The position numbers and the translations under genes were made by a program. This document shows positions 8,753 through 60,037 of a stretch of 64,000 nt of DNA, one piece after another. Within the stretch, counting starts at the first letter, position 1. Each line of letters starts with the position of its first letter. The DNA comes from a virus. Location of the stretch: the IMG/VR virus record IMGVR_UViG_3300037515_000188, positions 1 through 64,000 of that record. One strand, 5' to 3'. The notes below the pieces were generated by a model, which saw nothing but the letters and a program-made list of their open reading frames with translations, was not told the origin of the DNA and did not search any database.

Positions 8753-8961
8753 TTTTATATTATAACATACTAAGTAATTGATGTAAAGGACGATTTTTCA
8801 GTTTTCAAATGGAAAACCCTAAACGATTTTTCCATTTTGGTTTTCAAAACCCTAATTGTTTTTAATTAATTTATGTAATCTTTAATTCATGAATTGTTAA
8901 TGATTAAAAACTCGTTAACAGAGTATTGACAAATTTATTTAATTATGTAATACTATATTAT

Positions 8962-9195
8962 ATGAAAGATAGTAATAAATTTCCATTATACTTATATGGA
9001 CCTTGTGACGAGGTAAATATAGTTCCTGTAGTGGGAGATACTATTGCGATTATGATATATTCCACCAGAGTATCGTTTAAGATCGTGACTGATGTTATAA
9101 CCGATGAATATGGATATATTACTATATGGGTAGCGGGTGATAAACAATATCGTTTATCTGAATGTTTTATTATACGATATGAGGAAATTAATTAA
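8962..9195 (+). CDS. hypothetical protein (probably leaderless)
   Basis: TTGACA...TACTAT immediately before ATG 8962; followed by a terminator. Confidence 0.7.
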   Translation: MKDSNKFPLYLYGPCDEVNIVPVVGDTIAIMIYSTRVSFKIVTDVITDEYGYITIWVAGDKQYRLSECFIIRYEEIN

Positions 9196-9230
9196 TTTAT
9201 TTGATTTCATATAAGGACATGGTTAAATTT

Positions 9231-9255
9231 TAGGACAGGGAAGTCCTTTTTTTTA
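9231..9255 (+). terminator. intrinsic terminator
   Basis: aggac-aggga-agtcct hairpin followed by a T run. Confidence 0.6.
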
Positions 9256-9760
9256 TTATAGTTAATTTATAAATTCTTTATATTCTATATTTTATATTGT
9301 AGTTTATATTATCATTAATCATTCCATTGGATATTATTAATGTTAATAATGATTCCATTGGAAATTCATTTATAATTTTTTAGTGGTGTGGTGTTATACT
9401 GTACTACAACACCAGTGTTGTTTTTTGCCACATATGGTGGTAAAAATACCACGGAATTTTAGTTCTGTTGTTTTTTTGCAACAGCTATGACAAAATAACT
9501 CCGGAACAACTATTCTGTTGTTTATTTGCAACATGTGTTGTAGTTATACCACACTTGTCTCGTTTTTGCAACTCCTTGTTGTTTATTTACAACAAATTTA
9601 TTTAAGATAAGCGAACCCCTTCCAGCGGGACGCTAGAATGATGATGATACTTACAGTATACCATAATGTAAAGATTATTTCAATGGGTTGACAAGATTGA
9701 TTTATTATGGTATTATATAGATAATGGGAGATATGAGTTTTCTAAAAGTTAAAAGCACAG

Positions 9761-9847
9761 ATTTCCCCCTGCTCGTGGCCTTCTCTCCGATGCTTCGCAG
9801 TCCTGTTGTTTATTGTTGGGAGCGGACTACTTCTTCTTCGACTTCAA
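9761..9847 (-). ncRNA. conserved 87-nt element, copy 1 (putative sRNA)
   Basis: Near-identical at 20500-20586 and 42574-42660. A - strand TTGCAT..TGgTATAAT promoter lies directly upstream; GTAGTCC/GGACTGC stem. Confidence 0.6.
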
Positions 9848-9944
9848 AACCATTATACCATAATAAGCAAAAAAATGCAAGGTGGATTTTTACTTTTATT
9901 TGTGATATGATAGGGGTTCTCAAAGTTGAAAGGAATTGATTGAA

Positions 9945-10109
9945 ATGAATGAAAACAAAGATACCTTAGATCATTTGGAAATGTGGCTTGCTTGTGAACC
10001 AGCGGATGAATATTGTACTGTAAGTTGGATGCGACAGATCGCTGCTGATTGGCGTGAAGAACGTTATCAATTTGAAGCATTTGAAAAACTAGTTGATAAA
10101 AATTGGTGA
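9945..10109 (+). CDS. hypothetical protein (54 aa), weakly similar to the N-terminus of 49164..49478
   Basis: MNENKDTLDHLEMWLACEPADEY...ADWREER vs DALDRLIEWINQEPEDK...RDWTKDR. Confidence 0.55.
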   Translation: MNENKDTLDHLEMWLACEPADEYCTVSWMRQIAADWREERYQFEAFEKLVDKNW

Positions 10110-12159
10110 AAACATTAAAATTTAAATATATTTATAAGCTTCCTAGAATTACTAAATATTATTATAGTAATACTAATAATATTAATTTGGTCTTTTTACA
10201 ATTACATTATGATAAATTAGGAAATGTTGTAGGTAATCAGGTATATGAGCAATTAAAATTTCCATTATTGCAAGAGTTAGATAATGATAATAGAATTATA
10301 TTAAAAGGTACTGCATATAGAATTATATTAAAAGGTACTGCATGATATGAAAATTTTAATTGATAATAATAATTTGCAGGATTTTGATAATATTAGACAA
10401 TTGCTAATTAGAAATCATAAAAATAAATATTTTGATATGTATTTATTATATGAGACTGGAGTATTTTATAATCTTGGTTCATTGTGTGATATACTCCGAG
10501 AATCAATTGATGAAAACAATTGTTTTTAAAAATATGAAACAGTATTATGATATATGTTTTTCTAATGAGATATTTAGAAACTTATTAGGTACTAAATTAA
10601 GTGCTGGAATTAGTATTGAAATGAATCCTGTTAAAATTTCAATTGTTCAAATATTGTGTGAACAAATGAGAATGATTAATGAAACTAATAAATTCAATTC
10701 TTTCTAATTATGGTGATTTACCGCACTATAGTTTCTATAGTATAATTAAAAATTCAATAGGAGTTACAACATGTGTTTCAACATATAGTAAAATTCATAA
10801 TCAGTTACATCAATTGTATGTAATATGGTTAAATATATCTTGTGAAATGGAAAATTATTTTAGTGGGGAGAATTGATTAATGAAAACAATAAATTCAATT
10901 CTTACTGATTATGGTTATTTACCACATTATAATTCCTATCTTACAGTTAAAAATTCAATAGGAGTTACAACATGTGTTTCAATATATGGTGAAATTCATA
11001 ATCATTTATCTCAATTATATATATTATGGTCGGATATATCTTGTGAAATGGAAAATTATTTTGGTGGGGAGAATTGATTAATGAAACTATTAAAATTTAC
11101 ATATACTCATAATCTTCCTACCGTTCCTAGATATTATTATTGTTATATTACAATTGCGCACTCAATAGGAGTTACAAAATGTAATTCAATATATAGTAAA
11201 ATTCATAATCAGTTACGGCGACGGAATATATTATGGTTTTATATATCTTGTGAAATGGAAAATTGTTTTTTTATGCGGAGAATGATTAATGAAAATTATA
11301 AACACATTAAAATATTATGCCTGTTTTCATTACATTAGGTTCATTATGTAATATAATTAAAGAAGTAATTAATGAAAGTCATCCCTATTAAAAATATACA
11401 ACGTTGTTATTATGGGGCATATTGTTATTATGGGGTATATAATAATATTGAAAGATTAATAAGTAGTAAATTGTGTATTAACATTAATTTTAGAGTATAT
11501 CCTGTTAAGAGTTCAGTTGTTCAAATATTGGATGATCAAGTGAGAATGATTAGTGAAAACAATAAATTCAATTTTTGCTAATTATGATGGTTTAGTTTAT
11601 TATCATTACTGTATTACAGTTGAGAACCCAATAAGAGTTACAAAATATAAATCAATATATGATGAAGTTCATCATCAGTTGCATCGGCGCAATATACTAT
11701 GGTATGATATATCTTTTGAATTATGGTATAATATATCTTGTGAGATAGAAGAGTGGAAAAATTATTAATGAAGCCGTTACAATTACCTGCTCCTTGTTTA
11801 TTAGAATATTATTATGATATAATAATTAAAAAACTAGTGAAACCGGAAAAAATTAATTTAATAAAGAATACATTTGATTCGATAGAATATAGTCCTATAT
11901 TAATACTTGCTGAGATTACAAATAGGTTTAAACAATTAAAAATTATTCTAATATTATGAAAATTATAAACACATTAATGTATAATATAGAATTACGAAAA
12001 AAGATATATACAATTATACAAGAATATGATAAAAAATATGCATCCATGCGGTTTCCTTCTGTTCCGTATGATACAAATGATTCAGTTTCTAATAAGATGT
12101 ACCCGTTTACAAATATTGTAGTGGACGAATTATTAAGAATAATTCATAAAAGATATTGA
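10103..12159 (+). CDS. Array 2: ~11 tandem MK[TLIV][IL] micro-ORFs
   Basis: 10679, 10880, 11081 and 11553 are clear paralogs (SIGVT..SIY..IH.QL....LW..ISCEME); overlapping ATGA junctions. Confidence 0.75.
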
Positions 12160-12235
12160 CAAATAAAATAATTTAATATAATATGAAAAATAATATCATG
12201 AATTTTATAATATTTTTGTAAGTTTAAAAAAACAG
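12157..12235 (+). mobile_element. internally deleted IS607/TnpB-type miniature element (left end with promoter fused to right end)
   Basis: 5' half aligns with the promoter end of the 20061-20226 element; tatttttgtaagtttaaaa (12211-12229) is identical to 13709-13727. Confidence 0.5.
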
Positions 12236-12290
12236 TTGACAATTTAAAATTAATTTGGTAATATACATTTAACATTAAAAAGGTAAACAT

Positions 12291-13199
12291 ATGGAAATTT
12301 CAGAACAAGTGCTAGAAAGTTTAAGAACCGAGTGGATTGATATTGGTTTTTCTACTGGTGATGTAGATGTGGAAAAGGCTAAGCCTTATATTGAAGAAAT
12401 TTATCGCAATGGTAAATTCGATCCACCTGAATTTTATTTTGTAGTTAGTTCTCCTATTGAATTGCTGCAATATAAAACAGTGTTGGAAACTCTTGATCTT
12501 GATGTCCTTCGTAAATCGAATGATCCTTATAAGTTGGTTGCCAAAAAGGCTAAAAAAATAACCAATATTAAACTTGATTATGAACAAATCTGTTTTGGTA
12601 ATCATGATGCCGCAAGCTTGGCATTTTATGATTATTTTGTTCGTTATGAACATGTTGATGGTATCGAACCCATTGTTCCATTTATTGAACTTGCAAAAGT
12701 ATGTGGATGGTGGATTCCATTAGACGGAGCGGTTATTCTTACCAATTTACCAACATCCATTAAAAAGGATGATGAAGGTAGATTGCATTGTGATAACGGT
12801 CCTGCCATTTCTTATGATAACAGTGATTTTGAAGTGTATATTTGGCATGGAGTAAGAATTCCTCCTGAGTGGATCAGAGACAAGAGTTTAACTGCTGAAC
12901 AGGCATTAAAACATCCACAAATAGAACAGCGTAGAGCCGCATGTGAAATTTTAGGGTGGCACAATGTTTTGGAACAGCTAAATAGTATTATAATCGATGA
13001 TCATGATGATGAAGAGATTGGTACATTGATAGAAGTTGAAATACCTGATATTGGAACTGAAAGATTTCTTAAAGTGAAGTGCGGTACCGGAAGAATATTT
13101 GCCATTCCTGTCCCGCCAGATATTAAAACGGCCCTAGAAGCAAATGCATGGACTTATGGGGTTGCGGCAAATGATTACATACCGGAGATTAGAACATGA
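12291..13199 (+). CDS. DUF6745-family protein
   Basis: Motifs FGNHDA..LAFYDYF, CGWWIP, DDEGRLHCDNGPAI, WHGVRIP, EQRRAACEILG, C.TGR.FA.PVPP. Confidence 0.8.
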   Translation: MEISEQVLESLRTEWIDIGFSTGDVDVEKAKPYIEEIYRNGKFDPPEFYFVVSSPIELLQYKTVLETLDLDVLRKSNDPYKLVAKKAKKITNIKLDYEQICFGNHDAASLAFYDYFVRYEHVDGIEPIVPFIELAKVCGWWIPLDGAVILTNLPTSIKKDDEGRLHCDNGPAISYDNSDFEVYIWHGVRIPPEWIRDKSLTAEQALKHPQIEQRRAACEILGWHNVLEQLNSIIIDDHDDEEIGTLIEVEIPDIGTERFLKVKCGTGRIFAIPVPPDIKTALEANAWTYGVAANDYIPEIRT

Positions 13200-13549
13200 G
13201 AACATTTAAGAACTGTGCAGCACAAGGCGATATTTTGATTACCAAAATTGAGTCTTTGCCTGAAAATATAGTAGAAGTAGCACCGACGGAAACAGGTGTG
13301 CATATCGTTGCCCATTCGGAAACAGGGCATCATCATGTAATTACATGTGATGACGTTGACTATTTTCATGCCGCAAATAATGATGATATGGATGGTTTTG
13401 TATCATATTTGCGCGTGAATAAAGAGACAACGCTTCGTCATTTGCGCACCTTTGATACCCATGAGCCAATTAAATTTCTTAAAGGCTTATTCAGGTTAAA
13501 TCGTCAGCGGGAATATGTAGCTGAAGGTTTCCGTAAAGCTCAAGATTAA
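13196..13549 (+). CDS. His-rich partner protein usually adjacent to DUF6745 genes
   Basis: AQGDILI, AHSETGHHH, H.THEPI, RQREY motifs; ATGA-coupled to the upstream gene. Confidence 0.75.
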   Translation: MRTFKNCAAQGDILITKIESLPENIVEVAPTETGVHIVAHSETGHHHVITCDDVDYFHAANNDDMDGFVSYLRVNKETTLRHLRTFDTHEPIKFLKGLFRLNRQREYVAEGFRKAQD

Positions 13550-13598
13550 TTTTTGACTTTTTAATTAAAATAATATCGACAGTGCTTACTGTCGATTG

Positions 13599-13733
13599 AA
13601 AATATACCGGGAGTTTCTCGGGATTTTAAGCCTGCGGAGAACGGAGTTCACTGAATGAAAATTTGGTTAGCTGTTCAATGAAACAGGAATTTAACGGAAA
13701 ATATAAATTATTTTTGTAAGTTTAAAAGAACGG
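13599..13733 (+). mobile_element. TnpB omega-RNA-like right end / IS607-type miniature element (no tnpB)
   Basis: ACCG(T/G)GAGTT..GGATTTTAAGCCTGCGGAG...ATGAAACAGGAA...AAGTTTAAAAGAACGG resembles the tnpB 3' tail (T-V-S-S-T..A-C-G-E..M-K-Q-E) and an IS607-like GG end. Confidence 0.7.
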
Positions 13734-13789
13734 TGTAATGAATCGGATCATATAATCCCTAAACAGATGAAGTTATAGGAAATATATTT

Positions 13790-13918
13790 ATGTCTCAGAC
13801 AGAAGAAGTTCGATTAATGGTTGAACGAAGAAAGGCGCAGGCTGAAGAAAAAAGGGTTCGTAAGGCACAAAAAAGATTACGAGATTCAAAAAAAATAAAA
13901 CTAAAGAAGTTTAATTGA
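13790..13918 (+). CDS. small basic protein (42 aa)
   Basis: MSQTEEVRLMVERRKAQ...; its leader is a duplicate of the 14007 gene leader. Confidence 0.5.
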   Translation: MSQTEEVRLMVERRKAQAEEKRVRKAQKRLRDSKKIKLKKFN

Positions 13919-14006
13919 TTAAATCTAATTAATTTTTACTTGCTTAAAACCAGTAAATATGATATCATATAATCCCTAAACAAATGAAATTATAGGAACT
14001 ATATTC

Positions 14007-14507
14007 ATGTCAAAGAAAGCAAAGTTAAAGCCGAGTATAAGTTTACCAATTAAACCGAGTAAACTTATTCGGGATGAACTTGATATGATTAATGTATTGC
14101 GTATAAATCCTAATTATAATGTGATTTATTTTAGTTGGGAGCATTACTATGATATAAATTATCATGGTGACGATAAAATTACGGTTTCTTTAGTTGGATG
14201 CTGGATCATCAAAAATATGGATTTTGATACATCTAACCTATTAGATGACGAAAATATGCCATCAAAAATTTATGATATATTGGAATCTCTTAATCAGTTT
14301 AATGATGGATATGTTGAAGATGCTTTAGATTCATTAAATATTTTAGAACAAGTACAAGATAAATTAATGTATCGTGATGTAATTGGTAAATGGATGAACC
14401 GGAATCATGTAAATCCAAAAGATTTTTCACAAGATACCAAAATATTGAAAACATGGTTTTCTCAAATGGAAACACTTGCTACTGATTTAGAAGCGATTGG
14501 ATTTTAA
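14007..14507 (+). CDS. hypothetical protein
   Basis: 166-aa ORF with promoter and AGGA RBS. Confidence 0.8.
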   Translation: MSKKAKLKPSISLPIKPSKLIRDELDMINVLRINPNYNVIYFSWEHYYDINYHGDDKITVSLVGCWIIKNMDFDTSNLLDDENMPSKIYDILESLNQFNDGYVEDALDSLNILEQVQDKLMYRDVIGKWMNRNHVNPKDFSQDTKILKTWFSQMETLATDLEAIGF

Positions 14508-14512
14508 AAATA

Positions 14513-14767
14513 ATGAGAAAATCATATAATACATGGTCTGATGAAAGACCAGATGAAGCTGGATATTATTGGCTTTATGGTTATCCATATAATAAAAATA
14601 ATACTGATTCTAATGGAGATAAAATTAGTCCAAAATTATTGTTTATTGAATCAAAACCGTGGAATGAAACTTTTATTTTAACGTTAGGTGGAAGTATGTT
14701 ATATAGTTCAGATTTTGGAGATGTTAAATTTAAAAAGGCTGATCCACCTAAACTTCCTAAATTATAA
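14513..14767 (+). CDS. hypothetical protein
   Basis: W...P...G.YW motif typical of small phage proteins. Confidence 0.75.
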   Translation: MRKSYNTWSDERPDEAGYYWLYGYPYNKNNTDSNGDKISPKLLFIESKPWNETFILTLGGSMLYSSDFGDVKFKKADPPKLPKL

Positions 14768-14782
14768 TAACGGATAATAAAT

Positions 14783-15034
14783 ATGAAATATATAGCTAAG
14801 TGCGATGTTGGAGATGATATACATGAAGTATTATGTGAGGCAGCCTTTGTAGAACTTGATGGTAATTGGTTTCCTGTACTTGGATATGACCCTTCTGACG
14901 ATGTATTGTGTCTGGAGAATTTTTGTGGAAATGATTATGAAATACATAATGCTTCAAAAAATATTTTACCACAAAATGTTAAGGTAGCAGTACAGGTAAC
15001 TGAGAATGATTTGTATTTTAAACTATTCGGATAA
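14783..15034 (+). CDS. hypothetical protein
   Basis: 83-aa ORF in operon. Confidence 0.75.
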   Translation: MKYIAKCDVGDDIHEVLCEAAFVELDGNWFPVLGYDPSDDVLCLENFCGNDYEIHNASKNILPQNVKVAVQVTENDLYFKLFG

Positions 15035-15113
15035 TTCTTATTGTTGACAATGGTCTGAAATTTTGTTATAATGGTGTCATTAGTTCAATAAACCTTTTAC
15101 ACGGAAGGGTATC

Positions 15114-17558
15114 ATGAAGTTACATACTGAAAATCGATCATTAGAATCCGCTGGAATGAATATCAGCGTTGATTTTTCCGTTAAGATGAACGGGAAAGCA
15201 TTCAATGTATTGTCCAGTGGCGTTTATTCCGATGCAATTTCTTCAATCGTTAGAGAACTTTCATCTAATTGTTGTGATTCTCATATTGCTGCTAGAAAGG
15301 CTGATGTGCCATTTGAGGTATATTGTCCTACTGGATTCGATCCATATTTTGCGGTAAAGGATTTCGGTACTGGTCTGAGATATTTTAAATATCATGGACG
15401 GGTTAAATGTGAAATTGATGGGGAATCAACCATTTGTATTTCTGGTGATATCAGGAATACAATTGCTAATATCCGTGTGGTAATCCTTAACGGAAATACT
15501 ACGGTAGGAATTACTACGATTCTATATGATAACACTGCTGATGAAACAATTTTTCGTATTCCTTTAACCTTAAAGAATAATTCCACTATAGATGTGGAAT
15601 TTGATGATGCGCTGGTTTTGTACAGCACATATTTTGAATCGACCAAAGAGGATTCCAATGATTTTATTGGAGCCTTTGGATTAGGGTCAAAGACTCCATT
15701 TGCATATACTGATAATTTTATTGTTATTAATCGTTATAATGGTATTGCTCGCACTTATAATATTTTTACAAGTGAAAATGGAGTACCGCAAATTAATTTA
15801 ATGGGAATGTCCAATACTGATGAATGTAATGGACTGGAAGTTAAATTATCAATAGCAAATGATGACCATATTAAATTTAAAAATGCGATTAAAGAACAAT
15901 TGAAGTTTTTTGATCCACTTCCAAAAATTTATAATGATACAATTAATTTTCCAACAATACTTCATAAAGGTGAAAATTTCATCTTAATGGATGATACAGA
16001 AGTATCTGTTGATAATATGTATTATCGTGGATATAATGTAGTTATTGGGAATAATGCATATAATATACCATATAATGTTGTTTCCTTATCCAAGATTTTT
16101 AAACATAAACTTGTATTACGCTTGGATATAGGTGAAGTTATGGTAACAGCTTCTAGGGAAGCGATTAAAACTGATGAAGTTACTCGTGATATTATTATTG
16201 AACGATTCAACCGTGCTACCGAGGAATATACCAATTATATTCTGGATATGATTAGCAGGGATGATATGCTGGATTATGAAAAGGCTATTTTCTTAAATAA
16301 TAATTCTGATAGTATTGATCTTGATTTGGATTCCGTTCATAAGAATGTTGGTAATCCACATTATTTATATAACTCAAATGAAATAAGTATTCCTGTTAGT
16401 TTATGGGGATCATATATTTCTTTTGATTATACAGAAAAGGAAACTACTGATTTTTATGGTAATATTAAAACCGCATTCACAGTTAATCATGCGAGAGCAA
16501 AATATGTAAGTAGTGTTTGGTATGAATATGATTTGAATAAGAATAAATCAAAAAGAATTGGTTTAGGACAAAAAGAATGGGTTAATTTTTCTCCGCAATC
16601 TACATATCTTGTATTTATTCGAGATGATGCATATGCGTTTCATAAAAAAATTACTCAATATTTTGATACTAATAATACTAGTAAATGCAATAAAATTTTA
16701 ATAGTCGATTCATTTATAGAGGACGTTAATATTGAAGCTATTAATGAATTAGTATCATTTAATACTACATTTGTTAAGTTATCTGATATTAAATTACCTA
16801 AGACAGCTAGGATAGCGTGTAGTAATAAGTCTACTACTCCAATTGCCCGCATATTTACTATAGGAAAAGATAGCGGTTATATTTTTTCACGATTGACTGA
16901 TTGGGGTACGGTATATACATCGCTTAAAAAAATTGAAAATGAGAATGCATATGTCGTATCAAGTTATAGAGATAAATTTGATAATATTCAATATAATGAT
17001 ATAATGTTTTTCCAGACTAGTATTACTCTGGGATTAATTGATAAAAGAATTGAAATTTATGCTGTTCCCAAAGCAAAATATGAAAAAGCTGTTAAATATG
17101 GATTTAAACCTATTACTGATTTGATTAATGAATTAAAAACTAAATTTCATATACCAGTTGATTATGTAAATTATTTAGCGTTGAAAATTTTAATAGATGA
17201 TATTAATAAGACGCATGACATTTTTAAACTTTTTAAACATTTTAATGATTCTGACTGGAATAAGATTAATACAAATACCAATCTTTATATATTACATCGA
17301 ATTGTTGAAATATTTGAAAAAAGATATTTGAAAAAAGGAAGTATTTTCAATGATATCAAAAAATTAAGTAACTATATGGATACTGGTTGTATTCCAGAAC
17401 AAAGTGAGTTTGTAAAAAAGACTATTGACAAAGTAGCAGAACTTTGTTATGATGTAACTAGTTCAATGTTACTTTTAAATAACATTAATCATTATAGTTT
17501 TGGTGATAATGATGAAGAAAGAGATGCATTGATTAAATACGTAAATTTTATTGGTTAA
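15114..17558 (+). CDS. rIIA: RIIA-like protein (GHKL ATPase N-terminus)
   Basis: VRELSSNCCDSH, F.VKDFGTGL, YF.STK..SND.IG.FGLGSK.PFAYTD, V..SRE.I; adjacent to rIIB. Confidence 0.92.
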   Translation: MKLHTENRSLESAGMNISVDFSVKMNGKAFNVLSSGVYSDAISSIVRELSSNCCDSHIAARKADVPFEVYCPTGFDPYFAVKDFGTGLRYFKYHGRVKCEIDGESTICISGDIRNTIANIRVVILNGNTTVGITTILYDNTADETIFRIPLTLKNNSTIDVEFDDALVLYSTYFESTKEDSNDFIGAFGLGSKTPFAYTDNFIVINRYNGIARTYNIFTSENGVPQINLMGMSNTDECNGLEVKLSIANDDHIKFKNAIKEQLKFFDPLPKIYNDTINFPTILHKGENFILMDDTEVSVDNMYYRGYNVVIGNNAYNIPYNVVSLSKIFKHKLVLRLDIGEVMVTASREAIKTDEVTRDIIIERFNRATEEYTNYILDMISRDDMLDYEKAIFLNNNSDSIDLDLDSVHKNVGNPHYLYNSNEISIPVSLWGSYISFDYTEKETTDFYGNIKTAFTVNHARAKYVSSVWYEYDLNKNKSKRIGLGQKEWVNFSPQSTYLVFIRDDAYAFHKKITQYFDTNNTSKCNKILIVDSFIEDVNIEAINELVSFNTTFVKLSDIKLPKTARIACSNKSTTPIARIFTIGKDSGYIFSRLTDWGTVYTSLKKIENENAYVVSSYRDKFDNIQYNDIMFFQTSITLGLIDKRIEIYAVPKAKYEKAVKYGFKPITDLINELKTKFHIPVDYVNYLALKILIDDINKTHDIFKLFKHFNDSDWNKINTNTNLYILHRIVEIFEKRYLKKGSIFNDIKKLSNYMDTGCIPEQSEFVKKTIDKVAELCYDVTSSMLLLNNINHYSFGDNDEERDALIKYVNFIG

Positions 17559-51196: not shown

Positions 51197-51235
51197 GCAT
51201 ATATCATAGACCGTAACATTAAAAAACAAGTTTGG

Positions 51236-51530
51236 AAAAAAATTAACTTTGTTTTAAAAGTACCCTTATATAATGGTGGGGGTGGAACTCAGTTTTCAGG
51301 GTCTGTATATACTTATTTTTATATTTCATGAAAAATTTATATTAACCATATTTTTATATCTTTTAATAATAATTATATACTTATCTTTACATAAAATTTT
51401 ATATTAATATACTTTATACGTATTTTTATACCCTATTATATTATAAAAAATTAGCTCTGTTTTAAAATTACTCTTATATTATAATAGCGTAAATCTCAGT
51501 TTTCAGGGTCTGTATATACTTATCTTTACA
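51236..51530. repeat. ~85-bp direct repeat pair at the convergent strand switch
   Basis: ctcagttttcagggtctgtatatacttat at 51288-51316 and 51495-51523, with homologous upstream flanks. Confidence 0.85.
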
Positions 51531-51599
51531 TTATATCTAAAATTAAACATTTCTAAAATTTCCATTTAATGTATCATATATAACGCATTAGACCCTTTA

Positions 51600-54500
51600 A
51601 TGTATTATATATAATACATTAACCAAAACTATCTTATATTTTTTTTTAAAAAATTTTGATCCATTTCATCTTGCATTATCATTTTAATATCAGATAAATT
51701 ACTATCATAAACTAATTTACTGTATATCTTCCTACGGTAAGTAAAATGATCATAATATATCATGCGAGGATGTAATATCTTAAAATAACATTTATTAATA
51801 ATATGCATAATCTTAATTTATAAGTTTATCAATATTCAATAAAAAATTTTATTATTTTTTTAATTAACTATATATTAAAAATTTTTTTTACCAAAAAATT
51901 TCGATTTAATTCATTCTTTATCATCACTCTTATATCATTTAAATGAAATAATATATGATATAGATAATATGCTTTAGACTGATTATAATTTAATAGCGTA
52001 TGCTCAATATAAGCAATTGAATCATTATACCTATAAAAAATATCTTTAACAATATTCATCTTCTAATTCTTCCACTATTCGATCTATTAACTCCCCCAAA
52101 ATATCAGTAAAATATACAACATCATATAACAGAGAATCATCATAATTCAATGGTAAACGTATTTTATAATAAAAATCTACATCAAGTTGTTTATATATTG
52201 GTTTCATACTAAATTTATCCTCTAATAATTAATTACAAATTTGTCAATTTTACTAGAAAATTCAATAAATCTTATATATAATTTTTATTCTTATTTCATG
52301 ATTTATTATATTCTTTATTATATTTAAATCATTATCATACATTATTTTACTATACATTTTTCTCATACTAAGACTCCGAGGGGATAAGATATTAAAAATT
52401 AAAGTATCTTTAATGATTTTCATTTTTTCATTCTAATAATAATATCTTGCAAAAAATAATCAATAACATTTATCATCATCCATAATTTTATATCATTTTC
52501 AGATGGATATATCTCTTTAAAATCGTGCATCATTAATGCCAATTCAATATTAATTTTTAATGTGTTATAAATTAATTTCATCAAATTTCAGACTAATATT
52601 AATTTACTTGTAATTATATTCATATACTTCTATTTCTTTTAATATTATATCCCTAATATTCTGATTAAATAATACTTTATCATACAATAAAACCCAATAG
52701 TCCGGATATAAGTTATATAACCTTAATGGTAGTTCAATTACTTGTTTATAAATTATTTTCATCCATCGCATTCTTTATTATCATATTCTTTATTATATTC
52801 AAATCATTATCATATAAGAATCTATGATATAAATAATTTCCTTTAAAATTGAAATCATTATCAATATAAACAAATAAATCGTTATATCTATAAAAAATAT
52901 CTTCAATAATTTTCATCTTTTCCATTTTCCAATTATATAATCTATTACATAATCTTCTATTAATTCTTCTAATACTATATTTACTGGTTCCCATATAATA
53001 TTATTAAAATATATACCATCATATAAAAATAATGTTGTATTATAATTATTATCAATTAACATTAAACGTATTCTATTAAATACATCCATAGAAATTTTTT
53101 TATAAATCAGATTCATAAAATATATAATCCAATTCTTCCAATACTACATCCAACAAAAATTCTTGATCCCCCAAATCATACATCTGTAATAGTTCTGAAG
53201 AATAATAACCTCCATCATATAATGCCTGACTAATAATATCAATATTAAACTGTTGATAAATCAGGTTCATAAAACATATAATCCAATTCTTCTAATATAA
53301 TATCAATTAATGAGTCTTCTTGAATCCTCCACTCAATTAATGAGTCTTTAATCCTCCACAATAAATCATACATCTGTATTTTTTGATAATAATCATTATC
53401 AAATATAGATTGTTCAATAACATTAATATTAAATTTTTTATAAATCAATTTCATATATTTTTTTTCTTAGTTCATGATTTATCATATGCTTTATTATATT
53501 CAACTCGTTATTATATATTAATGTATGATATTTGGTATAAATAATTTCATCCAGATCAAACATATAATGTTCAAATGCATTAAATGATTTACCCTTTAAG
53601 AATATTATTTTTCCAATAGTTTTCATAAATTTTTTAATGATTCCAATATAGCACTCTTTAAACGTATTATATTCATCATAATAGTAAAATATATTACCTC
53701 TTCTATTTTTGCATACTTTTTTTCATGCGTCAGTATATACCTGCCATCACCATCCCATTGTATTTGTTTATATATTAGTTTCATATATTTTCAATTCATC
53801 CAATATGATATCGATCATTGATTCTGAGTCATGCCATATAATATTCTGTTGTACATAATTCCATGTAATATTTTGTTTCCTATTCATAAAATCATGTATC
53901 TGAAATATTTCTGAATGATACTCGGTAACGAATAACATGTATACCTTATCTACGATACTAGCAAATTGGACATGAATTTGTTTCATAATTGCAATTCATC
54001 CAATAATACTGTTCTTATACCCGTAAGTCCGGGAATATAGATTATACGATTTATTTTTATGCTTTTAGCATATAATAATGTATAGAATAAATTTCCATCA
54101 AATTTATTTAATTGTTTATATATTAGTTTCATATATTTTCAATTCATCCAATATGATATCGATCATTGATTCTGAATTATACCATATAATATAATCCCAT
54201 GTAATACTTTGTTGCTTGTTTATGAAATCATGTATCTGTAATACTTCCGGATGATACTCGTGACATAATAATATATAAATAGTTGGTCTTATTTTAACTA
54301 ATTGTTTATTAATTATTTTCATATAATTCATCCAACATATCATCCACTACTTCTAATGTAATTCTAAATCGAGTAATATTATATACACTATCCATATAGT
54401 GAGATAAATACATCATTGCATCATAATGATTTTCACTTAATGATGAATATATTTTATCAAATACATTTTCTTCAAATTGTTTATAAATTAATTTCATTTT

Positions 54501-57500
54501 TTATTTGTTCTTTGATAACACTTAATATAGTTACAATATCAACCGAATATAATGGTAGAGTATAATAAAAATGAGTTTTTATTAACATCCAATGTATAGA
54601 ACCGAATACATTTTCTTCAAATTTGTTATAAATTAATTTCATATATTATACGCACCATATCATTAAAAAATAATTCATCTAATAATAAATTCTGAACCAA
54701 CACCAAATGCATGATTCTATAATGTTTTAACGGCTGCTTTATAACGTAAATTATTATCTATATTAAATTTAAACCCATTTAATTCATTATATACAATATT
54801 CATTATTTTAATTTGCCAATTCATTCAAAATAAATAATCTTAATAATTTTGTTGGATTATCAACATACCAACATATATTTGTTTCATCCGTTCCGGAAAT
54901 TTCGTTCCATAATGTAATACCCATTGCTTTTAATACAGTCTTTTTATATACCAACTTATGGAGTAATTTACCATTAGCAGTAAATTCATTTAATGAGTTA
55001 TAAATAATTTTCATCATAATTTATCCATTATAATATCCATTATGATATCATGTATTGCATCTACCCTTAATAATTTTTCTATTATTATTGGTTTGGAAAT
55101 ACACCAACATTTAGATATTTCATTTTCCGTTGCCGTGAAATACATTATACCCGACATATTTCCACGAAATAATATATAAGTTATTTTAACTAATTGTTTA
55201 TTAATTATTTTCATCTAAATTGGATTAATTCATCTATTATTAATTCCATCATAATTATTTCTAAAGTATTAAATTTAAATGTATGATAATACTTGTTATA
55301 CTCATTTATACATATTGAATTATATACGTCAGTAAGTATAATTGATTCAAATTGTTCATAAATCAATTTCATGAATTTATTTTCTTATAACTTATACAAA
55401 TCATATAACGTGTATAATATAAAATCTTTCATATGCAATCCAACATCTTCTCGTATAATAACTGGTTGTTCATGTTGGTAATAATACTTACAATAAATTC
55501 CCCGCCTGATTTGTTGTTCCCTAAATTTCATTTGGTTATAAATGAATTTCATTAATTTGTTCCATGATTGATAATTTTAATAATGAAGGGCTTTCACGAT
55601 TACTTAAAAAAACATTTGGCCCATTATGTAAAATTAAATTATACATTATCACTGGTTTAATTTTAACTAAAATAAATAGCATGTTTAATCTCCATTAAAA
55701 TAAATTGTATTAATGTTCTTGGAGTATTATTAATATTCCAAAATCTAGTTTTTACCATATCATTATTATAACATAATAATTTAAATAATAAGGGTTTTAT
55801 TTGAGATAATTGGTTATTAATTGTTTTCATACAGTATTGTAACATTATGTAAATTCAATTGTTTATAACTTAATTTCGTAATTCTTCCATTAGTTTATTT
55901 CGTATATCTAATATACTTTCAAAATAAAATGACAATAATAGTTTTGGATAATAATGAATACCCAATATTTTCCAATATATGTTATCAAATATATTTTCAT
56001 CAAATTGGTCATAAATTAATTTCATAAATTTGATCCCATATCAATATTTTAATTAAATTTAAATGCCCCAATATATTATAGGCAAATTATGCTTTTTACG
56101 ATATTCATGTATTAATATATTAATGATAAATGCATTTAATTGATTATAAATTAATTTCATCTTCGATATACTCATTATCATCTATTTCATCAACTATGGC
56201 ATCTGTAATAGTCCATAAAATATTATCATTTATAATATAGTCAATACAATCATAAGATTCTTCGCTTAATATAACTTTAAACTTACCAATTAATTCTGAT
56301 TCCAATTTTTTACAAATTATATTCATTTTTTATTTCTTCTTTTATTCTTAGTAATGGAACAAATACATTATTTGTAGGAGAATTAATCACTATATTTTGA
56401 TCATATGTTAATATTTTATTAAATTCATAATTATAATAAACTATAAGAATAGCTATTATATTAATTATAATTTCATTTAATTCTTTATAAATTAATTTCA
56501 TCTTCTAAATACTCATATACTCATATTCATTTATTTCATTAATTATAGTAGTAATAATCAATAAAATATTATCATGAATATATATTGCATCATAATATTC
56601 TTCACTTAATGGCAAATATAATTTATCTGTAAATATTAAATATAATTCTTTATAGATTATAATCATTATAGTATCTAATGTAATATTTCATAAAAAATGT
56701 AATCTTGTATTATTCTAATTAAATTAAATGATCTATGTGTAGTATGATATAATTGATTTACAATGCCTGAATGATCTATAACCATTTTACGAGGTTTCTC
56801 ATGGACACGAAGATCAAATAATTTGTTTTTAATAATTTTCATAAACTTGATCCAATATCAAATATACTGCCGCATGTCCAATCTGCGTTCTTATCATAAT
56901 CTGCATTCTTATCATACCAGTTAATTGATATATTCTATTTGATATAACATTATTATAAATATAATTTACATTATTCCTATCGTGCAATCGGTAATTTAAT
57001 AATTGTTTATAAATATTTTTCAATTTTTTTTCTTATGGATGCATCTAATCATCTGTATTTATTTTCGAGGAAAATGTATAACATTCTATTAACAAGTTTC
57101 TTACCATAACTGTAAAATTAATTTTAAGTAATTCTTTAAATAATAATTTTCTTTTTTCTTTAAATTTATGTTTTAAGACAACCTGCATGACAAATACATC
57201 TAAATTTATTTTAATATTGTTCATAAATTATTTTCCATGCATTTTTTTCATCAATTAATTGTTCTTTTATTAATAATCGTATAGATAGTAAATCATTATA
57301 ATAATATGATAATGATCCAATTATTATTTTTGATTTATTAGAATTTAATTCATTGCTATAAATTATATCATATATTGGTCGAAATATCAATGCTCTATTT
57401 ATAATAGTTTTCATAAATTATCAAGTTCGTGAATTATAAACATTTTTATATTATTAAAAATCAATAACATATAAATTTTATAATAATCTGAATATGCTAT

Positions 57501-57548
57501 TAAATCAAATATATATGTTATTTTTAATTTGTCGTTAATTAATTTCAT
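51600..57548 (-). CDS. Array 3: ~30 tandem micro-ORFs (MKLIY/MKII/MKTI family)
   Basis: ORF track plus shorter ORFs; C-termini ..I(L/I)(D/E)EL..YE overlap the next ATG; promoter TTGATA-17-TATAAT before ATG 57548. Confidence 0.75.
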
Positions 57549-57597
57549 AACTATTGTATTATACATTGTTTTTTTATTAATATCAATAAATACGTCT

Positions 57598-58245
57598 ATG
57601 AAATTGAATGAAATAATAGATTTTAAACATGAGATAAAATCAGCATCCGATCTTAAACCCGGAGTATTACAGGGTAGAGGATTTTTTTCAAAGGTATATA
57701 CCGATCAGGATGATCCACACATGGTTATAAAACAATCTAAATTTTCCGACCAACTTGATACAAGTGATGGGTATTACAAATATATTGAAGCAACCATTAA
57801 AAATGGAATGAATGGGGTTAATCCATATGTACCTAGAGTTTATAAAATAAATGCGATTGATACTGGTATGCAACTTATGAAAGGAGTAAATTCTTATAAT
57901 CATGAAGTTCAAATAGAAAAATTAAATGTGGTGTATGATCTTGATATTAAAGATATTGAATTTATTTTGTCGAAAATTTTTCCAGAAGATTTAGTATCTT
58001 CATTATTATCAAAGGAATCACCAAATGAAATATTTGAATCCGTATCTGATATATTATTTAAAATATTAAAAGGTACATATACAATTAAGAAAACCTTATC
58101 CAAGGATTTAAATCAAGTATTGGAATTAATTAAAAAATTATATGATGATAAAATAATTACAGAAATTGATTTAAAACCAGCAAACTTAATGATTCGTAGA
58201 AGTCCATATGGTCCACAACTTGTTATTACCGATCCGGCGGCATAA
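57598..58245 (+). CDS. protein kinase-like (T7 gp0.7-type) paralog 1
   Basis: GRGFFSKVY, P.MVIK, PRVY, DLKPANLM.R, LVITDP; ATAAATA upstream. Confidence 0.8.
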   Translation: MKLNEIIDFKHEIKSASDLKPGVLQGRGFFSKVYTDQDDPHMVIKQSKFSDQLDTSDGYYKYIEATIKNGMNGVNPYVPRVYKINAIDTGMQLMKGVNSYNHEVQIEKLNVVYDLDIKDIEFILSKIFPEDLVSSLLSKESPNEIFESVSDILFKILKGTYTIKKTLSKDLNQVLELIKKLYDDKIITEIDLKPANLMIRRSPYGPQLVITDPAA

Positions 58246-58246
58246 T

Positions 58247-58858
58247 ATGAAATTAAATGAAATTATAGACTTCAGACATGATAAAATTGATATGTCTTCC
58301 ATAAAACGTGGGGAACGAATGGGTTCAGGATTCTATTCAACTGTGTATGCGGATAATGATGATCCACACATGGTTATAAAGGATATGGAACGCCATGGGG
58401 GTGATAAACCAAGAGATGGATTTTCCAGCTATATAGAAGCAATTATTGAAAATGGAATGAATGGAGTAAATCCTTATGTTCCTAGAGTGTATAAATTAAA
58501 TTCCTCTAAAACCAAAGATAATGAATATAAACATACTTATCAAATTGAAAAATTAAATGATCTTGAACATTTAGATAAAAAAGATTTTGAATTTATATTT
58601 TCAAAACTTCTTTCTGAAGATAAGATTAAAGAATATACAGATCATTCTGTTCGTTTAGCATGGGCTTTGGCTTCTTATATTGATGATTTAGTACATGGAT
58701 ATGAACCATTGTCAAAATCCAAGAAATTAAATGAAGTTATAGAACTTATCAGACAATTATATCAGAGAGGACTTTCCTATGATATAAAACCTGAAAATAT
58801 GATGTATCGTTCAACACCATATGGGGCACAATTGGTTATTAGTGATCCATTATATTAA
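58247..58858 (+). CDS. protein kinase-like paralog 2
   Basis: GSGFYSTVY, DIKPENMMYR, LVISDPL. Confidence 0.8.
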   Translation: MKLNEIIDFRHDKIDMSSIKRGERMGSGFYSTVYADNDDPHMVIKDMERHGGDKPRDGFSSYIEAIIENGMNGVNPYVPRVYKLNSSKTKDNEYKHTYQIEKLNDLEHLDKKDFEFIFSKLLSEDKIKEYTDHSVRLAWALASYIDDLVHGYEPLSKSKKLNEVIELIRQLYQRGLSYDIKPENMMYRSTPYGAQLVISDPLY

Positions 58859-58869
58859 TAAATATATTT

Positions 58870-59493
58870 ATGAAATTAAATGAAATAATACAATCGGAAG
58901 TATCTATTCATGATACAAAAGATTATAATCCATTACAGATGGGAGATCATATAGGAACCGGAACATATTATACAAGTTATGAAAATCCTGATGATCCTCA
59001 TACAATTCATAAATTCTCAAGACAACCAACAATATCCCATGATGGATTTAAAATTTATGCTGATTACATTATAAAATATAATTTAGCATCGAAAAATCCT
59101 TATTTTCCAAGAATATATAAACATCGAACTAATATAGAACCTCCATCTGATTTATCATATGAATTTGAAATAGAAAAATTATTATTATATTATGATATAA
59201 GAATAAAAGAATTTCGTCCCATACTTGAATTATTATTTAATGACTCTGAAGTTGAAGAAATTATGAACATACATAGTAATGAAGGAATTACAATTAAAAT
59301 TGCTAGAAAAATACGATTGATGATAACACAAAATATAAAAAGTAAATCAAAATTATTAAATCAGGCATTTTTTATTATACAAAAGATAATACGTGATAAT
59401 TCTGATATATATATTGATATACATGAAGATAATATCATGTTTAGAAGAACTAATTCTGGCATTCAATTAGTTATTAATGATCCATTAGTTTAA
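58870..59493 (+). CDS. protein kinase-like paralog 3
   Basis: GTGTYYTSY, DIHEDNIMFR, LVINDPL. Confidence 0.8.
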   Translation: MKLNEIIQSEVSIHDTKDYNPLQMGDHIGTGTYYTSYENPDDPHTIHKFSRQPTISHDGFKIYADYIIKYNLASKNPYFPRIYKHRTNIEPPSDLSYEFEIEKLLLYYDIRIKEFRPILELLFNDSEVEEIMNIHSNEGITIKIARKIRLMITQNIKSKSKLLNQAFFIIQKIIRDNSDIYIDIHEDNIMFRRTNSGIQLVINDPLV

Positions 59494-59741
59494 AACTCAG
59501 GTAATGAAAATATACAATAATTTTCATCCAATCCATATTTTCCACCATAAAAAATATATTGTATTTCAAAGGGATCAAGTTTTCTTCCAGTGTATACACC
59601 ATTAACGGTTTCTTCAAGATAAATCATATCATATTTTTTAAACTCGCGATCATTAAAACGTAATTCAAATTTTTTATCCCCGCGTTCTATTGCTTGATAA
59701 TATTCTGTTTCAGTTTTTAAATGATGATGTTGCCTGCTCAT
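59490..59741 (-). CDS. DUF3850/ASCH-like protein
   Basis: H.LK...EYY.AI..G.KKFELR.NDR.F...D...L.E, GL...Y.I.S. Confidence 0.85.
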   Translation of the reverse strand: MSRQHHHLKTETEYYQAIERGDKKFELRFNDREFKKYDMIYLEETVNGVYTGRKLDPFEIQYIFYGGKYGLDENYCIFSLPEF

Positions 59742-59761: not shown

Positions 59762-60037
59762 TTAAGATATTGAAAAGATACAATAATCTTCATGTATTCC
59801 ATTTATATTATCACCATATAAAATATGTTTTATTTCAAATGATGGATATATTCTACCAGTTCTTGTTCCATTGACGGTCTCTTCAAAATAAATCATATCA
59901 TATAATTTAATGTTATTAGAATTTTCTCGTAATTCAAATTTTTTAACCTTGCGTTCTAAATCTTGAAATTCTTTTGTTTCCAAATCTAAATGATGATGTT
60001 CTCGGCATCTACCATAATATCCAGTTTGTATAACCAT
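59762..60037 (-). CDS. DUF3850/ASCH-like protein, diverged paralog
   Basis: Paralog of 59490..59741. Confidence 0.75.
   Translation of the reverse strand: MVIQTGYYGRCREHHHLDLETKEFQDLERKVKKFELRENSNNIKLYDMIYFEETVNGTRTGRIYPSFEIKHILYGDNINGIHEDYCIFSIS

Follow-up and report, generated by a model that had tools for sequence, protein, structure and literature searches.

The 34 co-oriented mini-genes chained on the minus strand at 51629-57548, here called array 3, code for protein and form a genuine tandem array of a single orphan family, with intact members of 45-72 residues. Array 3 lies in the window analysed here, the first 64 kb of the 109,848-bp IMG/VR virus record IMGVR_UViG_3300037515_000188, which is estimated to be ~47% complete. 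The array is under selection for open frames, and mini-proteins for host takeover or counter-defence are the favoured reading, at slightly better than even probability.

The mini-genes span 28-72 codons, 32 being intact and 2 frameshifted, and begin with ATG in 33 cases and with TTG in one (56829-57023); the first-pass annotation, made from the letters and a list of open reading frames (ORFs), had counted about 30. ATG-to-stop ORFs of at least 45 aa numbered 31 on the sense strand (88.7% coverage) and 1 on the antisense strand (2.3% coverage), whereas such ORFs averaged 1.19 (maximum 5), with a mean coverage of 3.2% (maximum 13.6%), when the sequence was resampled 200 times under a first-order Markov model.

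Family coherence was scored with a leave-one-out hidden Markov model (HMM), by which 27 of the 34 members scored above all 100 of their own shuffles. After removal of the first 8 and last 5 residues, which the junctions constrain, 17 of 33 bodies ranked 5 or better among their shuffles (median rank 4 of 100), and body-only clustering (E ≤ 0.01) produced subfamilies of 7, 5, 2 and 2 members; about half of the predicted proteins are demonstrably related through their bodies. Paralogue alignments showed similarity at the protein level, with indels in multiples of three. The charges of members run from -12 to +6 (13 acidic, 16 basic), and Ile and Leu make up 27% of residues, with Cys at 0.6%, Ser at 3.7% and Thr at 3.2%.

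Guanine-plus-cytosine content (GC) at the first, second and third codon positions was 0.282, 0.164 and 0.171 in the array vs 0.390, 0.352 and 0.172 in 44 ORFs of at least 200 aa. Since second positions in the array sit at the synonymous-site equilibrium, residue identity is barely constrained; the ratio of nonsynonymous to synonymous substitution rates (dN/dS) was 0.62-1.17 in 7 paralogue pairs. In a simulated neutral redraw at local composition, ~10.8 of 32 frames stayed open when 10% of sites were changed and ~1.7 of 32 when 30% were changed; the observed number of open frames is 32 of 34, though paralogues are mostly less than 45% identical. The frames are evidently held open by strong selection, with amino acid choice hardly constrained. 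In the two frameshifted copies, mini-genes 9 and 17, the C-terminus is open in another frame and ends 17 nt into the next gene; by such frameshifts the array loses copies (gene death). The array and the elements that bound it are made up as follows.

57558-57586, minus: head promoter; -10 hexamer ends 9 nt before ATG 57548
57411-57548, minus: mini-gene 1, 45 aa, MKLIN...; leave-one-out HMM 17.4 bits, beats all 100 shuffles
57211-57414, minus: mini-gene 2, 67 aa; ATGA overlap with gene 1, leave-one-out rank 1/100
57045-57224, minus: mini-gene 3, 59 aa, weakest member; leave-one-out rank 29/100, membership by position and size
56829-57023, minus: mini-gene 4, 64 aa, TTG start, MKNIYKQL...; family head past the TTG
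56675-56842, minus: mini-gene 5, 55 aa; ORF and leave-one-out HMM
56505-56666, minus: mini-gene 6, 53 aa, subfamily A
56310-56501, minus: mini-gene 7, 63 aa; one hydrophobic stretch resembling a transmembrane (TM) segment
56144-56326, minus: mini-gene 8, 60 aa, subfamily A, very acidic (net charge -12)
56009-56160, minus: mini-gene 9, frameshifted; head ORF 56059-56160, 33 aa
56009-56086, minus: mini-gene 9 C-terminus (YEINL-stop end), open in another frame
55870-56025, minus: mini-gene 10, 51 aa, subfamily A
55663-55830, minus: mini-gene 11, 55 aa
55536-55682, minus: mini-gene 12, 48 aa, atypical head MLFIL; leave-one-out rank 7/100
55385-55552, minus: mini-gene 13, 55 aa
55211-55372, minus: mini-gene 14, 53 aa
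55014-55214, minus: mini-gene 15, 66 aa; head like that of gene 20 (repeat family D5)
54808-55014, minus: mini-gene 16, 68 aa
54626-54803, minus: mini-gene 17, frameshifted; head ORF 54717-54803, 28 aa
54626-54757, minus: mini-gene 17 C-terminus (LLLDEL...YEINL-stop), open in another frame
54481-54642, minus: mini-gene 18, 53 aa, subfamily A
54309-54497, minus: mini-gene 19, 62 aa, subfamily A
54116-54322, minus: mini-gene 20, 68 aa, subfamily D; mosaic duplicate of gene 22
53983-54132, minus: mini-gene 21, 49 aa
53768-53986, minus: mini-gene 22, 72 aa; duplicate of gene 20
53623-53784, minus: mini-gene 23, 53 aa
53438-53626, minus: mini-gene 24, 62 aa, subfamily B
53245-53454, minus: mini-gene 25, 69 aa, subfamily C
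53100-53270, minus: mini-gene 26, 56 aa, subfamily C, net charge -12
52913-53116, minus: mini-gene 27, 67 aa, subfamily A
52746-52916, minus: mini-gene 28, 56 aa, subfamily B; kin to gene 33
52604-52762, minus: mini-gene 29, 52 aa
52420-52581, minus: mini-gene 30, 53 aa
52262-52423, minus: mini-gene 31, 53 aa, subfamily B
52046-52207, minus: mini-gene 32, 53 aa, subfamily A; among the 3 genes with a good Shine-Dalgarno (SD) site
51868-52059, minus: mini-gene 33, 63 aa, subfamily B
51629-51808, minus: mini-gene 34, 59 aa, subfamily B, last gene
51557-51630, minus: hairpin of ~30 pairs, beginning in the last stop codon; -26.9 kcal/mol

The N-terminal signature described at first pass was recovered as M[KN][LITFPQN][IV] in 31 of 34 members (exact MKLIY in 10/34, MK[IT]I in 10/34), and genome-wide this start occurs in 30 ATG-ORFs of at least 35 aa, 21 of which lie on the minus strand at 52-58 kb. 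At the nucleotide level, the consensus gene head is ATGAAAaTaATTTATAAa.AATT, with conserved bases at +1 to +24 and none conserved upstream of the ATG, and these first ~24 nt are the best-kept part of each gene. Read one base out of frame, ATGA in the head gives an immediate TGA; read two bases out, the head gives [Y/N/D]-E-x-x-x-stop, which is the -17 class of overlap (..ATATATAA, with TAA 17 nt in). The 24-nt head evidently combines a start region and the family N-terminus, and in each of the two remaining frames it supplies the stop codon of the preceding gene. Overlaps are found at 22 of the 33 junctions (-17 at nine, -14 at four, -4 at six, and -1, -20 and -26 at one each), and the other 11 have gaps of 3-74 nt.

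Since upstream genes stop within the next head, the last 5 residues of many of the proteins are dictated by that head, and the tail ..YE.N(L/I) is, on this reading of the frames, the next gene's head in another frame and no independent protein motif. At first pass the next start had been placed inside the Tyr-Glu codons; Tyr-Glu occupies this position at 8 junctions and [Y/N/D]-Glu at 14. A C-terminal I[LI][DE]EL had also been proposed, of which the strict form is present in only 4 of 34 members, with 11 of 34 having [LIVM][DE]E[LI] within the last 25 residues. The motif does hold up when relaxed to hydrophobic-hydrophobic-x-[DENQ]-[EQ]-[ILMV], at 13 of 34 vs a mean of 0.86 (maximum 4) over 200 shuffles. 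This ..I-L-D-E-L.. motif lies farther upstream, and junction constraint does not account for it. As a caution, conserved ends of chained mini-genes may mislead as protein motifs.

Both internal duplications named at first pass were reproduced, 53768-53986 vs 54116-54322 at 61% identity (E 3e-28) and 51868-52059 vs 52746-52916 at 40% identity (E 1e-8). In the duplicated unit at ~53.6-54.3 kb, the first 20 codons of both large copies are unrelated, the middle is ~79-85% identical, ~75 nt across the C-terminus and the next head are then identical, and similarity stops after that head. An 84-nt junction is 95% identical vs 79% for the gene body (repeat families D9 and D11). The array evidently grew within this lineage of phages as genes were duplicated in tandem, and its paralogues then exchanged sequence by recombination or conversion. 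A cluster look-up of 10 members found each on 2-5 contigs (JGI/IMG, Logan) with alternative-start variants only, so no population variation is visible.

Searches outside this phage returned only the phage itself. A profile search of 1.84 billion representative proteins gave 14 matches at E ≤ 0.001, all identical to the array's own proteins, and a word-index search of 5.77 billion proteins gave 2 matches, both the phage's own. No match to the array was returned by megablast from 50,697 phage records, and IMG/VR scans with an array member, rIIA, a kinase paralogue and a kinase alignment gave no relative in a set that may omit the window's own record. Pfam, PHROGs and PADLOC gave no consistent match for the 34 members, and the best hit of a PDB sequence search had an E of 3.1. 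Rfam found nothing, and the array-3 profile found nothing in phages XacN1 and 121Q. Sub-threshold single matches to Glyco_transf_18 (19.4 bits, cut-off 28) and Tis1_ImmP (E 0.007) were set aside, as were the look-alikes of an ESM Atlas model, which are generic and helical, and the feature match of another member, which at 0.76 is within noise. An array of precursors of ribosomally synthesised and post-translationally modified peptides (RiPPs) was likewise rejected on the low Cys, Ser and Thr content and on the conservation of both ends instead of a single leader, and no RiPP-modifying enzyme was found among the neighbours scanned.

At the head of the array, the promoter expected from the first-pass annotation was located as TTGATA-17-TATAAT (57586-57558, minus, 11/12 match). 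With the usual promoter geometry, the leader of the first cistron would be ~2-3 nt, making the message nearly leaderless. Matches of at least 11/12 number 45 in the two strands of the 109,848-bp record, 10 of them on the minus strand of the window, and 5 of these 10 head minus-strand units (8787, 22782, 57586, 60824 and 60901), site 22782 heading the tRNA cluster and site 8787 heading array 1. The array 1 promoter (TTTACA-17-TATAAT, 8759-8787, minus) has its -10 hexamer 6 nt before ATG 8752, and array 1, like array 3, would begin with a leaderless or nearly leaderless message. The sole other minus-strand site of this quality inside array 3, at 57362-57390 in mini-gene 2 (TTGATA-17-TATAAT with a TG extension), is a possible internal promoter, and no terminator-like sites were found inside the array. 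The hairpin at 51557-51630 (z -4.6, with 0 of 200 shuffles folding as well) is likely a terminator or 3'-end stabiliser of the array transcript. Since a near-consensus promoter and a strong hairpin bound the array, it would most simply be one ~6-kb transcription unit.

Translation signals were assessed by computing how well a generic anti-SD sequence pairs with the 20 nt that precede each start. The near-absence of SD sites noticed at first pass was borne out, with 3 of 34 starts pairing at -4 kcal/mol or better vs 18 of 34 in a comparison set of 34 plus-strand ORFs of at least 100 aa (Mann-Whitney p=0.0009). Mean pairing was -2.1 kcal/mol in the array, -3.8 in the large ORFs and -1.2 at random positions, and the small excess over random pairing is attributable to GGA in the L-D-E-L codons. 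Translation by re-initiation, as first suggested, fits the classical -4/-1 geometry at 7 junctions but is unlikely at the 7 gaps of 21-74 nt, and a further 15 of the 33 junctions overlap by 14-26 nt, longer than the -4/-1 re-initiation geometry. Huber 2023 (PMC10666635) reports that in E. coli and Haloferax coupling is all but lost at distances of ~20 nt, so independent initiation would be needed at the 7 junctions whose gaps measure 21-74 nt; an SD-like site is present in only 2 of the 7 genes downstream of them. Compared with termination-reinitiation coupling at -4/-1 overlaps (Huber 2019, PMC6728339; Huber 2023, PMC10666635), array 3 is alike in that 7 of its 33 junctions are ATGA or -1, and differs in that its commonest overlap is -17, not -4, and that seven gaps measure 21-74 nt. 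If the genes are expressed, SD-independent initiation on A/U-rich starts must operate, and re-initiation may add to it at the short overlaps. The promoter layout and the -17 overlaps would make the array a natural test bed for SD-independent initiation and long-overlap re-initiation.

Two further arrays lie on the same contig, and with array 3 they comprise ~85 genes and ~15% of the contig.

1-8752, minus: array 1
about 10103-12159, plus: array 2

Arrays 1 and 3 had been described as bracketing the whole early region, which is so on the contig, but the contig starts inside array 1. Because members this short and this diverged would not yield a well-supported phylogeny, kinship was judged by pair densities and nearest neighbours. 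The proposal that array 3 is a separately expanded branch fits the results, since 31 of its 34 members find their closest counterpart within array 3 itself. At E ≤ 1e-3, BLASTP pairs numbered 19 within array 3, 35 within array 1, 8 within array 2 and 0 between arrays (0/1394 for arrays 1 and 3), and at E ≤ 0.01 the densities were 35/561 within array 3, 58/820 within array 1 and 1/1394 between them. The companion proposal, that both arrays are the same system, was left with a weak set-level signal, pairwise and profile similarity not being significant. The array-3 HMM reached 2 of 41 array-1 members (E 0.003-0.004, best decoy E 0.0075), both matches running through the shared ..DEIYEN.. tail, and hhalign of array 3 vs array 1 gave P=0.073 over 16 columns with a probability of 0.8%. 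Own-shuffle ranks of 5 or better were obtained for 14 of 41 array-1 members (median 15) vs 2 of 39 control small ORFs (median 59), weakening to 6/41 (median 26) vs 1/39 (median 55) without the first 8 residues. A shared start context and AT bias could yield such a set-level signal without common descent. By these comparisons array 3 is an independent expansion, and a common origin of arrays 1 and 3 is possible.

Arrays 1 and 2 resemble array 3 in size class, chained layout, GC (21-24%) and scarcity of SD sites, ~10% of array-1 starts pairing at -4 kcal/mol or better, low as in array 3. Array 1 further shares MK-plus-hydrophobic starts, a weak C-terminal helix periodicity and a near-consensus promoter. 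The heads differ, being MKIL/MKNMKIL in array 1 and MKLIYKQ in array 3, and array 1 is mostly basic (32/41 with isoelectric point above 8) whereas array 3 is split between 13 acidic and 16 basic members.

The record also carries rIIA, followed by an ORF that we take from its position to be rIIB, two RNA ligases and 5 tRNAs, and its best matches to proteins of cultured phages are to jumbo myoviruses: its glycosyltransferase is 57-62% identical to the homologues of XacN1, Xoo-sp13, CM1 and RAS14, and RNA ligase 1 is 43% identical to those of CM1 and RAS14. At 52-58 kb GC is 21-22% and GC skew is negative, and in the plus-strand early region at 12-50 kb GC is 28-36% and GC skew is positive. A divergent control region of 49 bp separates the head of array 3 from three kinase-like paralogues.

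57598-58245, plus: kinase-like paralogue, ~205 aa, tandem, divergent from array 3
58247-58858, plus: kinase-like paralogue, ~205 aa, tandem, divergent from array 3
58870-59493, plus: kinase-like paralogue, ~205 aa, tandem, divergent from array 3

Two of the paralogues match phrog_15752, the PHROG of the T7 gp0.7 kinase (E 2.5e-8 and 8e-12), and the third matches only phrog_3809; Pfam Pkinase scored 16.8 bits on the paralogues, under the cut-off of 31.7. Kinases are marked by a glycine loop, a VxK lysine and a D-x-K-P-x-N catalytic loop; the D(I/L)KPxN loop is kept in two of the paralogues and degenerate in the third, which, with its loop lost and a different PHROG, is possibly a pseudokinase.

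Since array 3 lies divergent beside three gp0.7-like kinases at the edge of the rIIA/rIIB early region, its genes would be early, and its products are most likely diversified small intracellular binders or inhibitors for host takeover or counter-defence. In such proteins, a constant N-terminal strand and a C-terminal amphipathic helix would carry a freely changing middle. They would be translated without SD pairing from a message whose first cistron is nearly leaderless, the later cistrons being reached by re-initiation at short overlaps or else by direct loading on unstructured A/U-rich starts. Known modules for host takeover, such as SPO1 gp37-60, T7 class I and the T4 small early proteins, comprise many small early genes and resemble array 3 in that their products are small, early and non-conserved, that they lie near a gp0.7-type kinase and rII genes, and that strong sigma-70-type promoters drive them. 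The genes of those modules are unrelated to one another and have individual ribosome-binding sites, whereas array 3 is a 34-fold, SD-poor family. If the takeover or counter-defence reading is true, such arrays would offer small inhibitors in large numbers, a supply that has yet to be exploited.

Several results weigh against this reading. No link between a member and a target was found, none of the members matched a family of defence or anti-defence proteins, and the model stored in the ESM Atlas for one member is poor (predicted local distance difference test, pLDDT, 0.55; predicted template modelling score, pTM, 0.29). The periodicities expected of an amphipathic helix (z 2.3) and of a strand (z 1.9) are weak. 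No more than 6 of 33 bodies outscore every one of their shuffles and body-only clustering at E ≤ 0.01 leaves 18 of 34 as singletons, so to judge by sequence this other half of the family is kept in it mainly by the head and the C-terminal helix, and the family-defining head is itself also under nucleotide-level constraint. A dN/dS near 1 and the near-equality of second- and third-position GC suit near-neutral drift equally as well as diversifying selection, and promoter-like matches across the region are no commoner than in shuffles (97 vs 97.4).

The same composition and dN/dS values (0.164 vs 0.171 and 0.6-1.2), the singleton bodies and the lack of homologues found outside the phage would also be expected of a near-neutral, self-expanding tandem family, a gene nursery or filler whose copies have no individual targets and whose frames stay open only because untranslated or prematurely terminated message is harmful or unstable; tandem duplication as a route of jumbo-phage expansion, suggested by Hua 2017 (PMC5646251), is in keeping with it. 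We consider this unlikely. The array ends in a hairpin, leaving no downstream gene where read-through would matter, 32 of 34 frames are open at family length where neutral change at 30% of sites would leave ~2/32, members carry the C-terminal motif more often than shuffles do (13/34 vs 0.86), and a head-limited phage spends 5.9 kb on array 3 and ~15% of the contig on the three arrays. A bolder proposal, and a decidedly unlikely one, is that the three arrays form a phage-made, recombination-shuffled mini-protein library with its own way of being read. Each array's promoter would then give a nearly leaderless message, the 24-nt head would serve as SD-independent start, upstream stop and crossover site for cassette exchange, and selection would act on staying translated and diverse, as would be required of a library of decoys or binders facing host defences that vary. 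More doubtful still is that the mini-proteins are interchangeable partners retargeting or regulating one conserved phage protein, either the kinase paralogues or a DUF6745 protein. The 49-bp divergent control region shared with the kinase paralogues agrees with that idea, and a constant N-terminus and C-terminal helix around a variable middle would suit a common docking surface, but charges of -12 to +6 are odd for a single docking mode, the kinase adjacency may merely reflect shared early timing, and the DUF6745 gene (12291-13199) adjoins array 2, ~38 kb from array 3.

It is very unlikely that the products are small peptides acting on membranes, whether in superinfection exclusion, in the timing of lysis or as toxins: the small size, the 27% Ile and Leu and a hydrophobic 19-residue window in two members would fit, but a TM-like stretch is confined to those 2 of 34, the mean grand average of hydropathy (GRAVY) is -0.02, no signal-peptide-like starts were seen by eye in the translations, and most members are strongly charged. 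That there are no genes here, only an AT-rich repeat with chance ORFs or a region in another genetic code, is close to refuted. Very low GC (21%) and the want of database homologues are what such a region would show, but the ORF statistics and strand-specific GC skew speak against it, as do the similarity of copies at the protein level, the indels in multiples of three and the empty Rfam search. Other codes were rejected directly, since reading through TGA, TAG or TAA leaves ORFs unfused and large conserved genes are intact under table 11. What array 3 allows is to separate, from sequence alone, strong selection for open frames, a near-absence of selection on residues and a C-terminal 'signature' made in part by the junctions.

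Jumbo phages 121Q and G are reported by Hua 2017 (PMC5646251) to carry upwards of 30 similar small genes arranged in tandem, and tandem duplication is suggested there as one route of jumbo-phage genome growth. Array 3 is likewise a tandem run of over 30 small genes, related to one another and in one orientation, carried by a large phage. The 121Q and G arrays share with it a large myovirus as carrier, some 30 genes of 50-90 codons chained in one orientation, frequent overlap of stop with start, MK(I/V)(I/L)-type N-termini and the lack of an assigned function. In the 121Q record (KM507819.1), chained small ORFs occupy 155.7-162.2 kb, and 21 of them share an LGTNYQE-like core (65-90 aa after trimming, with overlaps that include -4 and -17); smaller clusters of small genes lie at 133.4-134.6 kb and 72.5-74.2 kb, with 6 and 5 members. 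No sequence relationship was found by hhalign of the 121Q array vs array 3 (P 0.49). The 121Q copies keep a conserved central core, whereas array 3 is conserved mainly at the ends with largely unalignable bodies, and GC is 21% in array 3 vs 34% for the whole 121Q record. Array 3 joins a little-studied class of jumbo-phage mini-gene arrays, in which large phages invest a considerable share of their sequence, the tiny proteins encoded there in tandem belonging to families without a name in any database. A single passage on such families was found in print (Hua 2017, PMC5646251), and no functional study of such phage arrays was found in the literature searched.

In XacN1 (AP018399.1), a run of ORFs of 100-160 aa without known function lies at 9671-15346, upstream of rIIA on the opposite strand. 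Partial paralogy was detected in it (7 pairs at E ≤ 1e-3 among 28 ORFs compared), and it is a possible positional counterpart of the arrays. Promoter-early stem-loop (PeSL) cassettes, which occur in hyperplastic regions of T4-type phages (PMC2839356, PMC4122927), resemble array 3 in having variable small early genes without an assigned function, clustered between conserved blocks of a T4-related genome, and in evidence of modular shuffling among neighbouring genes. A PeSL organisation was nevertheless rejected for array 3, because the 22 overlaps among 33 junctions leave no room for a promoter and stem-loop between genes. Array 3 also differs from PeSL cassettes in having one internal near-consensus promoter and no internal terminator-like site, in using the coding head itself as the substrate of shuffling, and in consisting of paralogous genes where PeSL genes are unrelated ORFans.

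Past the array, the 3' flank at 51197-51628 holds a ~100-nt repeat in two copies (51237-51337 and 51445-51544, 81% identical), which sits in the convergent gap and contains an exact 25-mer unique in the window; it gave no Rfam match and no consensus minus-strand RNA fold. Nothing was found in common between the flanks of array 3 and the 1-kb control module at 8753-9900. Beyond the kinase paralogues lie two adjacent DUF3850 genes on the minus strand (59490-59741, E 1.2e-19, and 59762-60037, E 6.4e-9). Later in the record are a transposase-like gene at 68077-69240 (minus; phrog_506, E 1.3e-68) and large homing/HNH endonuclease genes at 97026-98756 (plus) and 104167-105819 (minus). On the plus strand at 15-51 kb, eight sigma-70 promoters with a 12/12 consensus match punctuate the early region, for example at 15044, 29060, 31213, 38101, 40605, 45226 and 47477.

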